Shown: positions 1 through 4,878, counted from the stretch's first letter. The stretch is DNA of 64,000 nt from Escherichia coli (GCF_050920415.1 NZ_CP169309.1), one strand, 5' to 3'. Numbers and translations are program-made. Notes: generated from the sequence alone by a model not told the origin.

Positions 1-632
1 TTTACCGGATCATGCGCCAGAATGCGCTGTTGCTTGAGCGAAAACCTGCTGTACCGCCATCGAAACGGGCACATACAGGCAGAGTGGCCGTGAAAGAAAG
101 CAATCAGCGATGGTGCTCTGACGGGTTCGAGTTCTGCTGTGATAACGGAGAGAGACTGCGTGTCACGTTCGCGCTGGACTGCTGTGATCGTGAGGCACTG
201 CACTGGGCGGTGACTACTGGCGGCTTCAACAGTGAAACAGTACAGGACGTCATGCTGGGAGCGGTGGAACGCCGCTTCGGCAACGATCTTCCGTCGTCTC
301 CAGTGGAGTGGCTGACGGATAATGGTTCATGCTACCGGGCTAATGAAACACGCCAGTTCGCCCGGATGTTGGGACTTGAACCGAAGAACACGGCGGTGCG
401 GAGTCCGGAGAGTAACGGAATAGCAGAGAGCTTCGTGAAAACGATAAAGCGTGACTACATCAGTATCATGCCCAAACCAGACGGGTTAACGGCAGCAAAG
501 AACCTTGCAGAGGCGTTCGAGCATTATAACGAATGGCATCCGCATAGTGCGCTGGGTTATCGCTCGCCACGGGAATATCTGCGGCAGCGGGCTTGTAATG
601 GGTTAAGTGATAACAGATGTCTGGAAATATAG
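1..632 (+). CDS. insD: IS2 transposase OrfB (InsD), N-terminally truncated by window edge
   Basis: Reading frame open from base 3; DDE-transposase sequence ...[24 protein letters not shown]. Confidence 0.85.
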
Positions 633-643
633 GGGCAAATCCA
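1..643 (+). mobile_element. IS2 insertion sequence, 3' portion (element continues upstream of window); right terminus TAGGGGCAAATCCA ends at 643
   Basis: ORF 12..632 translation matches IS2 OrfB (InsD) C-terminal region; terminal inverted-repeat sequence recognised just after the stop codon. Confidence 0.85.
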
Positions 644-894: not shown

Positions 895-3800
895 TCAGAA
901 TTGCCACTTAATGCCCACCATTGCAGAGGTGTCATTATATCCTCTATCGGCAACCTGAACGCCCACATTCCCCCAGACATTCAGGTTGGCATTTAGCTGT
1001 CCTTCCACCCCGGTTTTTATCTCAGCAATATTGCGGGCTCCATCCTGAGTGACGGACACGCCATCCATACTGGTGCTGAAATCCTTACTGTTATGCAGCC
1101 AGTTCACTTCTACAAACGGCTGGAACTCGCGGGATTTACTGTCATCCATTTTATGGTGGCTCTTCAGCCAGGTTTTTACGCCAAGTCGGGTTTGAACATT
1201 GCCATCACCGTTGCTATGAACGAGGGTTCCGTTGCTTTCGCGGTGATTATCGGCTTTGACTCCCATCCAGGTAACCTGTGCTTGCGGCTGAACATACCAT
1301 TCATTACGCGTTCCCTGGCTGCCATTAAATTCAGCTAATTTGTGTTTGTATCCAGCTTCCAGTGACGCGGTAAATCCTTTTGATTTATAGGATTCACTTT
1401 GTAAGTCATCCCCTTTCACTGTGTTATCAAACCAACTGTACTGCGCCCAACTGTCGAGATACGCGCCATTACGCGACTCGTCATCGGCATACCAGGTGGC
1501 ATAGAGGCCTGTGCTATATCCGTTCACACTCGCTTTTGCACGATAACCAGTGCGCGAGGAGGTCGTTTTGCTGTCGCTGTTGCCATATCCCGCCATGACC
1601 CCAATATGCCAGCGATCGCTGTCGTTTTGGCTCCACTGCGCGATATCGCCTCCCAGTTGCAGAACATAGCGATTGCTTTGGGTTTTCAGCTGGCCGCTGC
1701 CATCACGCCATTTATTATGACCCCCTTCATGGCGCATCCACATACTGGTTTGTTTCTGCTCACCCGTCACCATGTCGGTATAGTATGTATTTCCCAGACG
1801 CTCATGCAGACGCGTGTTGAACATGGTATTCGCTGCTGCAAGGTTCGCAATGTAGCTACCCGCCTCCGGTCGCAGGTCATTATCCACATTCAGATCCGGA
1901 CCCGGCGTAGGTGTCGGGTTAGGGTTCGGCTCTGGATTCGGGTTTGGCTCCGGATTCGGCATCGGGTCTGGCTCCGGCTGCAGTTCAGGAGAATCACTGC
2001 CGCTGGTCAGATACCAGTTACCACTATTTGCCCCTTGTCCACGCGCGAGAGTGTAGTCATATGCCCCCGCAACGATACGCCCAGCCTGAACAAATTCGCC
2101 CTCAGACTTACCGTCAACATGGATAAGTTCGATACCGTTAAGGGTTTTCGCACCTGTACCGCCAGCGTTATTCACCGTAACGGCAGTCGTGCCGCTAGTA
2201 TCGCCCTCGACAACCAATTTATCAGTTACTGAATCATCGCCATTCAGTACCGTATTCATTACCAGTTGGCCGTTATTACCGTAGTAGTTCCCCTTCACCA
2301 CCAACACGTTGCCAGCTTGCAGTCCTGACATCCCGGTCATCAGCGTACCGTTGTTGGTCAGATTGCCACCCAGGGTGTAATTCACTGGTGCAGCCGCTCT
2401 TTTTTCAGCGCTATTATTCAGCGCCAGGGTGCCGTTGTTCTCAATGTTTGCGTTACCCATTCCCTGCGCATGACTAACCAGGACATTAGCCGAGCTAGCA
2501 ATGTTCACATTCGCCGTCAGGTTGCTATTATCGCCCGCGATATCCAGCGTGCCGCCCTGAATATTCAGCTCTCCGCTTCCCGTTAACGAACCGGTTGAAG
2601 TGCCCCCGTTGGTAACCGTCAGACTCCCGCCGTTCAAGCTCAGCAGTGAATCGGCGCTGCCATTGAGCGTGCCCACGATCTGGCTGTGACCATTCATATC
2701 CAGTTCAGTCTCTGCCGCCAGACGCAGTTCATGGGTATTACCCAACACGTTATCGTTATTCAACAAAAGCGTCCCGCTGCGCAGATCGGTAATACCGGTA
2801 TAGTCGTTGTCTTTGTTAGAAAGCGATACGGTCTGACCTTTCTGGCTGCTGAAAGCCAGGTCACCACTGCCGGTAATCTTTGCACTAAGATCGGCGGCAT
2901 TCTCGCTCTTACCGTTGGCACTCAGCACCAGGGCATCACTGTCGGTAGCCTGCAATTCAAGCTGGGTCAGGCCGTAACCGATATACAGACCGTCATTGTT
3001 TACCCCACTCGTCAGACGATAGTCGTAAGTGCCGACGGCCGCTTTTTGCCCATTCTGCTGAATATCACGTTGGGCGCTGCTGGAGAGGATTTGCCCATTT
3101 TTATCCTGCAATTGCAGATTGCCCGCATCGCCCAGAACTTCCGCACCTTGCGCATCAACCAACTTAATGGTGCTGTTACCATCATCGACTTCAGTGAGCG
3201 ATAACGCAGAGTCAATATCACGAGATACTGAGCGGACAACGTCACTGTCAGAAACCTCAATCACACCCTCGCCGCGCAAATCCAGCGTTTTACTAACGTT
3301 GACTGTCCCTTCTGTCATCTGCGCGCCAGCGGTCAGGGCACCAAAATCAACGGTTCCGCCCGAGAATCCCAGAGTGCTAATGGAGTGAGCGCCCTTACCC
3401 ACTGTTATCTGGCTTCCCTGACCCGCAGTGATCCCGCCTTTCTGCAGAAACTCAGCATTTTTTTCCAGGTTAAATGTCGTGTTCTGGAATGCCAGTGCCC
3501 CCTGAAACCAGTCTGTATAAGCAAACTCATCGAAGGAGAATTCGTGATTCCCCATGTTTATTTCAACAACGCCTTTACCTTCAAGATCGTTATCAAACAC
3601 CCAATCTTTATTGGCATTAATTTGCAGTTTGCCATCAACATCCAGTTCTGCACGGCCGATGTTCTTATCTTCAGAAATAACAGCGACAGCATCGGAAGCG
3701 ACATCAATATATCCGCTGAATGCATAGTTATTGCCGATCAACTCCACCGTCCCACTGTCGATACTTATTGTACCGTTGCCGGAAATCTTATTGGCAAAGG

Positions 3801-4878
3801 TCATGCTATCGTCAGCCTTCAGGTGTAATTTCCCGCGGTTGGTGATTTCTGCTGTACCTATATTTTGGGTGATCCCTAAAGCCCCGTTTTTCTCAATTTT
3901 GACTTTGCCGCTAAAGGCGGAGTTATCACCGGTTAAGTAAGTTGTACCATTGAGCGCATTGATATAGCCCAGGCCCTCGCTGCCACTGACAATATCCGCG
4001 GAAATAGTCGCGTTTTTATCCGTGTGGTTTAAAGTGATTTTCTTATCTGATGTCGAAGCCCACACAAACTCAATTTTTTCGGCATCAATAATCCCTGCCG
4101 CCTTCGCTGCATTTCCTTCCTGTGCACCTAACGCCAACTCAGAGTTGGTGCTTAAACTAATAGTCGGCGCAGATACTTTTCCGCCTTCTGAAACGGCAAG
4201 TGTTGTATCGGAGTTTTGATTATAATAGCCCAGGCTAATTTGCTTACTGGCATTAACTTCACCGCCGTTATTAACTGACAGGTACTGATTACCACCGTAA
4301 CTGCTGTAAACGCCCATAAAGAAGGTTTCGGAATTTACCTGGCTACCTTCCCCACTGACATTTCCCTGCGTATAAGTCAGACGACTGGTGCCCTTAACAT
4401 GGATTTTGCCGCCGTTGGAGACATTAAAATAGCCGCGATCGTGTCTCATGCCTGAGTTTGATTCATACAAATCATCAGCATATAACTCGCTGCCAGCATT
4501 GGAGACATTCAGGAACCCCGTACCTTTCAGCAAAAAGTTAAGTGGGCCATTGATTGTTACCTTTCCTCCGGTAATATCCAACCCACCACCAGAAGCGAGA
4601 GTCAGACGCGGACGGGAAGTATCTGTCGCATTGATTACCAGATTGGCATTGTCAGTCACCGTAATATGGTAATCGATGCTCTGGTTCTCTTTGCCAAAAT
4701 CAATAGTTTTATCCTGGTTTACGATGACATCATCGGCGAATACCAGAGATGAATATAAACTTATCGCGCTAATTAAAACAGCCCGGGACTTTTTTCCTTT
4801 TACTCTGCTCCCCAGCTCAGAGCAAACGCTCCAACAGTTACGGGACCTGTTCCACTTTAGCCGATATATTTTATTCAT
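895..4878 (-). CDS. ehaA: AIDA-I-type autotransporter adhesin, 1327 aa (EhaA-like): extended signal peptide, beta-helical passenger, Pro-rich linker, C-terminal beta-barrel
   Basis: ORF 895..4902; start moved to ATG at 4878 (MNKIYRLKWNRSRNCW extended signal peptide motif, GGAG RBS upstream); PEPNPNP linker; C-terminus ...GIKWQF typical barrel end. Symbol is from recollection of length and neighbourhood, not verified. Confidence 0.8.
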   Translation of the reverse strand: MNKIYRLKWNRSRNCWSVCSELGSRVKGKKSRAVLISAISLYSSLVFADDVIVNQDKTIDFGKENQSIDYHITVTDNANLVINATDTSRPRLTLASGGGLDITGGKVTINGPLNFLLKGTGFLNVSNAGSELYADDLYESNSGMRHDRGYFNVSNGGKIHVKGTSRLTYTQGNVSGEGSQVNSETFFMGVYSSYGGNQYLSVNNGGEVNASKQISLGYYNQNSDTTLAVSEGGKVSAPTISLSTNSELALGAQEGNAAKAAGIIDAEKIEFVWASTSDKKITLNHTDKNATISADIVSGSEGLGYINALNGTTYLTGDNSAFSGKVKIEKNGALGITQNIGTAEITNRGKLHLKADDSMTFANKISGNGTISIDSGTVELIGNNYAFSGYIDVASDAVAVISEDKNIGRAELDVDGKLQINANKDWVFDNDLEGKGVVEINMGNHEFSFDEFAYTDWFQGALAFQNTTFNLEKNAEFLQKGGITAGQGSQITVGKGAHSISTLGFSGGTVDFGALTAGAQMTEGTVNVSKTLDLRGEGVIEVSDSDVVRSVSRDIDSALSLTEVDDGNSTIKLVDAQGAEVLGDAGNLQLQDKNGQILSSSAQRDIQQNGQKAAVGTYDYRLTSGVNNDGLYIGYGLTQLELQATDSDALVLSANGKSENAADLSAKITGSGDLAFSSQKGQTVSLSNKDNDYTGITDLRSGTLLLNNDNVLGNTHELRLAAETELDMNGHSQIVGTLNGSADSLLSLNGGSLTVTNGGTSTGSLTGSGELNIQGGTLDIAGDNSNLTANVNIASSANVLVSHAQGMGNANIENNGTLALNNSAEKRAAAPVNYTLGGNLTNNGTLMTGMSGLQAGNVLVVKGNYYGNNGQLVMNTVLNGDDSVTDKLVVEGDTSGTTAVTVNNAGGTGAKTLNGIELIHVDGKSEGEFVQAGRIVAGAYDYTLARGQGANSGNWYLTSGSDSPELQPEPDPMPNPEPNPNPEPNPNPTPTPGPDLNVDNDLRPEAGSYIANLAAANTMFNTRLHERLGNTYYTDMVTGEQKQTSMWMRHEGGHNKWRDGSGQLKTQSNRYVLQLGGDIAQWSQNDSDRWHIGVMAGYGNSDSKTTSSRTGYRAKASVNGYSTGLYATWYADDESRNGAYLDSWAQYSWFDNTVKGDDLQSESYKSKGFTASLEAGYKHKLAEFNGSQGTRNEWYVQPQAQVTWMGVKADNHRESNGTLVHSNGDGNVQTRLGVKTWLKSHHKMDDSKSREFQPFVEVNWLHNSKDFSTSMDGVSVTQDGARNIAEIKTGVEGQLNANLNVWGNVGVQVADRGYNDTSAMVGIKWQF

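Follow-up and report, generated by a model that had tools for sequence, protein, structure and literature searches.

O-island 15 of EHEC O157:H7 is an element of 4643 bp with a single ORF, ehaA/z0402 (PMC8565820), and the EhaA protein of O157:H7 is active in adhesion, aggregation and biofilm formation (Wells et al. 2008, cited after PMC8565820). E. coli K-12 MG1655 has the gene order betT-yahV-pdeL, without ehaA. In K-12, PdeL autoregulates its Cra-dependent promoter, and a delta-pdeL strain has an unbuffered low-c-di-GMP planktonic state in which biofilm starts more easily and escape is poorer (10.1101/2021.10.01.462762). The insertion sequence of reference is IS2A of K-12, an IS3 family element of 1331 bp.

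In this work we have analyzed a 64-kb stretch of E. coli DNA, here called the window, which begins inside an IS2 copy and continues through the start of pdeL and the whole of ehaA into betT (Table 1). The arrangement is very probably that of a normal betT-ehaA-pdeL locus into which a single recent IS2 transposition, into pdeL, has occurred.

Table 1. Features of the IS2-pdeL-ehaA-betT region, in window coordinates
Feature	Position	Strand	Basis or remark
IS2 3' part, right terminal repeat ending at 643	1..643	+	IS2 nt 689-1331
IS2 transposase OrfB/InsD, C-terminal 209 codons including stop	3..632	+	Pfam rve, rve_3
ATTAG, predicted 5-bp target-site duplication	644..648		predicted from the one visible side
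pdeL (yahA), truncated 5' end, 36 codons + 2 nt (MASHDLSVFLEEFGATVNLTLPGIVSEKERLLLKLL)	644..753	-	cut by IS2 in codon 37
Spacer from ehaA stop to pdeL start, 141 bp	754..894	-	gene strand without a sigma-70 consensus match
K-12-absent segment, 4642 bp, O-island 15 of O157:H7	769..5410		BLAST
Hairpin 22 nt past the ehaA stop (AGAGAGCCGAA...TTCGGCTCTCT)	841..872	-	possible, perhaps leaky ehaA terminator
ehaA, 1327-aa classical (type Va) autotransporter adhesin gene	895..4878	-	ORF, Pfam, RefSeq
betT-ehaA intergenic region, AT-rich, ehaA regulatory region	4879..5450	-	composition (29-35% GC)
Promoter-like TTGATT-16-TATAAT, 241 nt upstream of the ehaA ATG	5120..5147	-	10/12 consensus match
Palindromic Cra-box sequence GCTGAATGGATTCAGTC	5266..5282	-	17/17 match to the K-12 pdeL Cra box
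Hairpin after betT, left border of the variable segment	5409..5434	-	K-12 homology ends at the hairpin edge
betT, choline transporter, core gene flanking the island	5451..7484	-	annotation, alignment

The ehaA gene and its island

The autotransporter gene described in an earlier note on this DNA is present as an ORF starting from an ATG on the minus strand, and the identical protein is named 'autotransporter adhesin EhaA' in RefSeq. Pfam places ESPR (PF13018) at aa 1-38, AC_1 (PF18883) at aa 839-944 and Autotransporter (PF03797) at aa 1046-1305, i.e., the type Va architecture of an ESPR signal peptide, a passenger with autochaperone, and a C-terminal 12-strand beta-barrel domain. The domain order of ESPR, passenger, AC_1 autochaperone, Pro-rich linker and beta-barrel is shared with the O157:H7 protein, which has the same 1327 aa and the same betT-to-pdeL position; 1285 of the 1327 residues are identical (97%) with no gaps, and the two proteins are orthologous by sequence and by locus. 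The window differs from O157:H7 in 42 amino-acid substitutions in EhaA and in having the downstream pdeL broken by IS2. Among PDB entries the relatives are the translocator of AIDA-I (4MEE; 1.4e-91) and the autochaperone of IcsA (3ML3/5KE1), so that the protein is like this autotransporter group in translocator and autochaperone, whereas the passenger sequence is specific to EhaA. Activity in adhesion, aggregation and biofilm formation is established for the O157:H7 protein alone, and EhaA of the window is a predicted adhesin by orthology.

The autotransporter was also said to be missing from the K-12 position, and this holds for MG1655, in which BLAST leaves the segment of Table 1 unmatched and 820 bp stand in its place. 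In length the segment differs by a single base pair from O-island 15 of O157:H7. No direct or inverted repeats of note were found flanking the island, and an Rfam scan of window positions 1-8000 returned nothing at E <= 0.1. A contiguous betT-ehaA-pdeL locus without any IS was detected in at least 1385 of the 5426 complete E. coli genomes; this is the normal state of the locus in those E. coli strains, roughly one quarter, that have ehaA (O-island 15).

The hairpin in the ehaA-pdeL spacer was identified by a scan as a 12-pair stem with an 8-nt loop, and by RNA folding as an 11-pair stem; its sequence is identical in O157:H7, and on the ehaA strand a U-run lies 6 nt past the stem. The earlier note had called it the terminator of the autotransporter gene; the hairpin is real, but its role as the ehaA terminator is no more than plausible. 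Terminator-like sites in the region numbered eight, as compared with 4.4 +/- 2.1 in shuffles, and were not strongly enriched. pdeL itself starts 141 bp behind ehaA, beyond this imperfect hairpin, and no separate promoter for it is evident.

IS2 and the interruption of pdeL

Alignment to IS2A of K-12 gave 641 identical positions out of 643 (two mismatches) and bore out that the window starts inside IS2, its first base being IS2 nt 689, and that the right end of the element is at 643. What is visible is the 3' 643 of 1331 bp, the first 688 bp lying before window base 1. The terminus (...TAGGGGCAAATCCA) is identical to that of IS2A, and the copy ends with the canonical right terminal sequence ...GGGGCAAATCCA. 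Matching copies are labelled 'IS3-like element IS2 family transposase' in RefSeq, and the OrfB frame contains the integrase core (Pfam rve, 8.9e-19; rve_3, 9.7e-19). From the IS2 end to the ehaA stop there are 251 bp (644-894), in agreement with the distance of about 250 bp first estimated. No second copy of IS2 was found within the 64-kb window.

The insertion target and any disrupted neighbour had been thought to be out of sight, which proved wrong. The DNA directly beside the IS2 end belongs to the 5' end of pdeL, and it matches at 100% identity the beginning of that gene in strain MFDS1022581, where pdeL is intact (362 aa). These 110 bp correspond to the first 36 codons of pdeL plus 2 nt, and IS2 therefore interrupts the gene in codon 37. 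It was the comparison with other strains, as the earlier note had proposed, that revealed the interrupted gene, MFDS1022581 showing an intact pdeL at the site; the target is thus a gene and not the neutral intergenic site for an intact IS2 which the note had named as the finding that would speak against its reading. The other 979 nt of pdeL do not occur in the window.

pdeL (yahA) encodes a LuxR-HTH/EAL c-di-GMP phosphodiesterase, and in the intact protein (362 aa) Pfam assigns aa 26-72 to a GerE HTH and aa 112-346 to an EAL domain. An intact 362-aa protein combining both domains is not encoded in the window, where codons 1-36 remain, and pdeL is predicted to be a pseudogene in this strain. 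The leftover peptide of 36 residues would be without most of the LuxR-type helix-turn-helix and without the whole EAL domain, so that neither the PdeL c-di-GMP phosphodiesterase nor the autoregulator would be expected in the strain. The transposase reads toward ehaA, convergent with ehaA and pdeL, and IS2 has left both ehaA and its downstream hairpin untouched. An outward promoter in IS2 activating a downstream gene was considered and rejected, there being no plus strand gene after 643 and no promoter-like site at the junction.

In uninterrupted pdeL the insertion point reads ...CCCTCC ATTAG CAGC.... The ATTAG next to the IS2 terminus would represent the target duplication of the element, with its second copy beyond the window; it is taken as such because each of three further IS2 insertions, found in related genomes, has 5 bp duplicated beside the same terminus. 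A simple insertion would also predict that the left end is followed, after the ATTAG duplication, by the rest of pdeL, with a left junction consisting of ...GACATTCCCTCCATTAG joined to TAGACTGGCCCC.... Comparable events are known from strain PEC209, where an IS2 element 95.6% identical to IS2A is inserted in pdeL at about nt 804, and from strain AHM8C212RI, where IS2 is inside ehaA; both are simple insertions with a 5-bp duplication, and they share family, locus and orientation with the copy in the window. Their insertion points differ from the one reported here and they are therefore independent events.

Origin of the IS2-pdeL junction

The earlier note had read the locus as an accessory adhesin island bounded by an IS. 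The accessory island stands, as O-island 15, while the IS boundary does not. That IS2 might delimit the ehaA island, or be the vehicle which brought or mobilises it in a composite or IS-flanked form, was suggested by its position 251 bp from an accessory gene which K-12 lacks. The island occurs at the same site and free of IS in the 1385 or more genomes mentioned above, the junction was found in the window sequence only, and the IS2 end falls 125 bp past the island edge, within pdeL; the 64 kb contain one IS2 fragment and the island has no flanking repeats, so that the arrangement is not that of a composite island and this explanation is barely credible. Strain MFDS1022581 argues in the same direction, being near-clonal to the window (about 5 differences in about 63 kb) and having pdeL intact with no IS2 there; the positions of IS2 differ between the two strains, with pdeL occupied in this strain and a ykgA-like gene in MFDS1022581. 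A search for the junction (171 bp, megablast) found it covered in 0 of 5426 complete E. coli genomes. Exact 30-mers across it gave 0 matches in JGI metagenomes and among the species representatives of GTDB. No record was returned for the chimeric PdeL-IS2 ORF, and the contigs returned by an exact-protein look-up of EhaA all had an intact pdeL. On these genome comparisons IS2 in pdeL is a recent knock-out specific to this strain rather than the boundary of an island, because at least 1385 carriers are free of IS, the junction is in none of the 5426 genomes, and pdeL is intact in the near-clonal strain.

Two further explanations concern the event itself. If the visible IS2 end were the breakpoint of an IS2-mediated deletion or inversion, the missing part of pdeL, possibly together with yahB and sequences beyond, would have been lost or moved. 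The absence of the remainder of pdeL from the window, with the left junction lying outside it, would fit such a rearrangement, as would the about 20 IS2 copies of the closest relative (21 places in the record), which offer many recombination partners. Since the window begins 688 bp short of the left end of IS2, one would not expect to see the second part of pdeL in any case, and each of the three comparable IS2 insertions examined is a simple one, with 5 bp duplicated and the element lying between the two halves of the gene; a rearrangement is thus unlikely. A mis-join at one of the repeated IS2 copies could also have set an IS2 end against pdeL during assembly, as assemblies are classically prone to error at IS elements and no other record searched has the junction. 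The junction is located exactly at the canonical terminus, as real transposition predicts, and a mis-join within a repeat would not make a new junction between an IS end and unique DNA in the middle of a gene, which makes an artefact very improbable.

Promoter-like elements upstream of ehaA and possible consequences of the insertion

The betT-ehaA intergenic region is 97.4% identical to that of O157:H7 and contains counterparts of elements known from the K-12 pdeL promoter, which is composed of a Cra box, a Cra-dependent PdeL box (CDB) and a distal PdeL palindrome (CIB) (Reinders et al.). Published oligos served to locate these sites in K-12, the EMSA oligo 'CB CDB fwd' (10.1101/2021.10.01.462762, supplement) mapping to the K-12 Cra box. 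A 41-nt block around the promoter-like site of the window is identical in 32 of 41 positions to K-12 intergenic nt 504-544, a score reached by 0 of 1000 shuffles; the site is a homologue of the core promoter of pdeL in K-12, and its K-12 counterpart lies within the RNAP-binding fragment of Reinders et al. The matches of Cra box and promoter block each have a z of about 9-10 against shuffles, and in these sequence elements the region is like a Cra-controlled promoter of the K-12 pdeL type, with 109 nt from Cra box to core promoter as compared with 112 nt in K-12. In K-12 these elements precede pdeL, whereas in the window they precede ehaA. Further differences are the absence of CIB, the conservation of CDB in about 11 of 17 positions (counted from the alignment), and a spacer and leader which are not alignable. 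No similarity above shuffles was found between the K-12 leader or CIB and the ehaA leader, the ehaA ORF or the ehaA-pdeL spacer. When outgroups were searched for the Cra-box pattern, the sole hit was a contig of E. coli that had been mis-binned into a Collinsella MAG.

It should be noted that ehaA-positive E. coli have the ehaA gene placed between pdeL and the sequence counterpart of its Cra-dependent K-12 promoter.

From these elements ehaA may be under Cra/PdeL control. It is possible, though doubtful, that ehaA and pdeL are co-regulated or co-transcribed, which would place an adhesin and a c-di-GMP 'digital switch' in one regulatory unit; if so, the knock-out of pdeL by IS2 would alter both ehaA expression and c-di-GMP levels. 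A link of ehaA with Cra or pdeL was not found in the open-access literature searched.

The finding is in itself an ordinary one, i.e., an adhesin gene already described, at the site where it usually lies, and one more insertion of IS2. For annotation it means that the strain should be scored as ehaA-positive and pdeL-negative, and that the IS should not be taken for an island border. By analogy with K-12 the strain might show the phenotype of a pdeL deletion, and loss of PdeL may shift it to a sessile, high-c-di-GMP state; it should be kept in mind that the region upstream of pdeL is different in K-12. Much of the regulatory work on pdeL has been done in K-12. About a quarter of E. coli genomes, O157:H7 among them, have the same Cra box and promoter ahead of ehaA instead, and the control of pdeL established in K-12 may therefore not transfer to the strains that carry ehaA.

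IS2 in the pdeL gene

The window opens with the 3' part of IS2, which equals nt 689-1331 of the 1331-bp K-12 element IS2A with two mismatches; its terminus reads ...TAGGGGCAAATCCA, the rve integrase core of the transposase is encoded in frame 3-632, and no second IS2 copy is present within the 64-kb window. The earlier note had correctly placed this end, the 1327-aa autotransporter gene ehaA and the hairpin at 841-872, with about 250 bp between IS2 and the gene (251 bp measured), and had taken the insertion target and any disrupted neighbour to be out of sight. The target is visible, being the 5' end of pdeL (yahA), and comparison with other strains, as the note had proposed, recovered what the IS interrupted: an intact pdeL, encoding 362 aa, in the near-clonal E. 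coli MFDS1022581. The truncated gene translates to MASHDLSVFLEEFGATVNLTLPGIVSEKERLLLKLL before the frame enters IS2. Since a GerE/LuxR HTH spans residues 26-72 of the intact protein and an EAL domain residues 112-346, both functions are lost through the interruption in codon 37. PdeL of K-12 is a c-di-GMP phosphodiesterase and an autoregulating transcription factor which converts graded c-di-GMP into two states; compared with wild type, K-12 delta-pdeL formed biofilm at higher levels of pdeH expression and was poorer at escaping from one already formed (10.1101/2021.10.01.462762). A strain with pdeL::IS2 would be expected to share this phenotype.

MFDS1022581 is the closest genome: it is collinear over about 63 kb and differs from the window at about 5 positions. 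Its pdeL is intact, an IS2 lies in a ykgA-like gene at a site which is empty in the window, and IS2 matches 21 places in its genome; because a near-identical genome differs in IS2 positions, IS2 has moved very recently in an IS2-rich lineage. By analogy with simple IS2 insertions in other strains, the unseen left junction at pdeL would run from ...CCCTCCATTAG into the left end of IS2; an IS2-mediated deletion or inversion in place of simple insertion is improbable. Two further IS2 insertions, in pdeL of strain PEC209 and in ehaA of strain AHM8C212RI, are independent and simple, each with a 5-bp duplication (see table). The IS2/pdeL junction itself was absent from complete E. coli genomes, GTDB species representatives and JGI metagenome contigs. 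The pdeL gene is not an insertion hotspot, since it is essentially full length in 5080 of the 5160 genomes with the gene and split into two places in only 22 records.

Coordinates of features in the window and in the sequences compared with it
Feature	Sequence	Position	Strand	Details
IS2, 3' part	window	1-643		
pdeL 5' end	window	644-753	minus	110 nt adjoining IS2 end, identical to MFDS1022581 pdeL start
Inverted repeat	window	841-872		11-12-bp stem, 22 nt past ehaA stop codon
ehaA ORF	window	895-4878	minus	1327 aa counted from ATG
Core promoter site (within conserved block)	window	5120-5147	minus	
Cra site	window	5266-5282	minus	perfect palindrome
Empty IS2 site	window	20417-20421		CAGTC
ykgA-like ORF	window	20129-21019		uninterrupted
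IS2 in ykgA-like AraC/GyrI gene	MFDS1022581 (L002)	32952-34281		
IS2 in pdeL	PEC209 (L004)	3313-4643		near nt 804; duplication ACCCG; element 95.6% identical to IS2A
IS2 in ehaA	AHM8C212RI (L005)	7733-9063		duplication GCGTA
Distal PdeL palindrome (CIB)	K-12 intergenic	210-232		
Cra box	K-12 intergenic	375-387		
Cra-dependent PdeL box (CDB)	K-12 intergenic	388-404		
Reverse primer, RNA-polymerase-binding fragment	K-12 intergenic	534-553		just beyond TATAAT at 536-541

The ehaA island and its edges

EhaA combines an ESPR extended signal peptide with a type-1 autochaperone domain homologous to that region of IcsA and an autotransporter beta-domain homologous to the solved translocator of AIDA-I. 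It matches EhaA of an O157:H7 strain without gaps (1285/1327 identical), and across 5426 complete E. coli genomes searched by megablast its hits all carry the annotation autotransporter adhesin EhaA, always between betT and pdeL. Overexpression of O157:H7 EhaA makes K-12 aggregate, form biofilm and adhere to epithelial cells of the bovine rectum, and ehaA deletion in O157:H7 work reduced adherence in pig ileal loops (reviewed in PMC8565820). The hairpin behind the gene, which the earlier note had called its terminator, is real, and a terminator role is reasonable but not proven: the U-run on the ehaA strand starts 6 nt beyond the stem, and the 8 terminator-like sites of the region are not far above shuffles (4.4 +/- 2.1).

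The autotransporter is indeed absent from K-12 MG1655, where the order is betT-yahV-pdeL. BLAST homology to K-12 ends at 5411 on the betT side and restarts at 768, just ahead of pdeL, so that 4642 bp are specific to the window, where K-12 has 820 bp; this segment fits O-island 15 of EDL933 (4643 bp, sole ORF ehaA/z0402; PMC8565820). The proposal of an accessory adhesin island thus holds, but not that an IS bounds it: the betT-ehaA-pdeL block is contiguous and free of any IS in 1385 or more of the 5426 complete genomes (26%), the IS2/pdeL junction recurs in none of the collections searched, the IS2 end lies 125 bp past the island edge, the window has no second IS2, and no flanking repeats were found around the island.

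Between the ehaA-linked pdeL (L001 5025-6113) and that of K-12 (L003 8372-9460), identity in steps of 60 nt is 62-90% over the first 300 nt or so, which encode the N-terminal region with the HTH, and 90-100% over the rest of the gene. The numbers of records with each pdeL allele (1408 vs 3703) match how often ehaA is present, so the variable haplotype reaches into pdeL.

Other differences along the window

The betT-betIBA block (5411-11859) is only 92.9% identical to K-12, against about 95-97% for the remaining shared window; the ehaA polymorphism lies within a divergent haplotype block. Relative to K-12, about 340 bp are missing in the ykgH region (11859-11875), and about 6 kb beside paoD (42024-48157) are extra, annotated in MFDS1022581 as MFS transporter, alpha/beta hydrolase, LysR regulator and SDR oxidoreductase genes. 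At the site matching window 17807-17813, MFDS1022581 has a 12.3-kb P4-like satellite in rclA (L002 18006-30337; integrase, primase and capsid genes), absent from the window, which is collinear with K-12 there. The thrW attachment site is empty (48601-48699; tRNA-Thr CGU at 48624-48699), while at that site MFDS1022581 carries some 61.6 kb more of mobile DNA, with a Drt3a/Drt3b antiviral reverse-transcriptase island and prophage genes among it. An uninterrupted 1417-aa ORF (21140-25393, minus) stands where collinear MFDS1022581 has an fdeC annotation (inverse autotransporter adhesin FdeC), the K-12 counterpart being eaeH, a pseudogene adjoining IS3; with ehaA and the full ecp pilus operon, three adhesin systems therefore lie in 64 kb. 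A 5.1-kb contig of a 'Collinsella sp.' MAG (JAIJJM010000200.1), 95.8% identical to 644-5444 (pdeL 5' end, ehaA and upstream region), is almost certainly mis-binned E. coli DNA.

A shared Cra box and promoter upstream of ehaA

A Cra-consensus scan found a perfect palindromic site upstream of ehaA, and the K-12 interval between betT and pdeL contains the identical 17-mer. The block around it (29 nt) is 25/29 identical to K-12, and a 41-nt promoter block (TTGATT/TTGATC-16-TATAATGCGC) is 32/41 identical; each beats all 1000 shuffles (z about 9-10), yet the spacer between them, of near-equal length (109 vs 112 nt), is not alignable. In sequence, the two haplotypes of the betT-pdeL interval are not entirely unrelated. 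The experimentally used sites of the K-12 pdeL promoter were positioned from oligonucleotides that Reinders et al. list in their supplement (see table). What stands in front of pdeL in K-12 therefore stands in front of ehaA in the window and in O157:H7, except that CIB is absent from the window, and ehaA is flanked by the 'pdeL promoter' on one side and by pdeL on the other. The latter follows 141 bp behind ehaA on the same strand, after the imperfect hairpin, and this spacer contains no sigma-70-like site. Among the listed matches of an open-access literature search, none brought ehaA together with Cra, pdeL or yahA.

Every component, EhaA/O-island 15, IS2 and pdeL, is already known, and what is specific to the window, an unrecorded pdeL::IS2 allele, is routine pseudogenisation. 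The arrangement suggests that in strains with ehaA the two genes, ehaA and pdeL, are regulated together or even transcribed together, and of all the findings only this shared Cra box and promoter merit an experiment.
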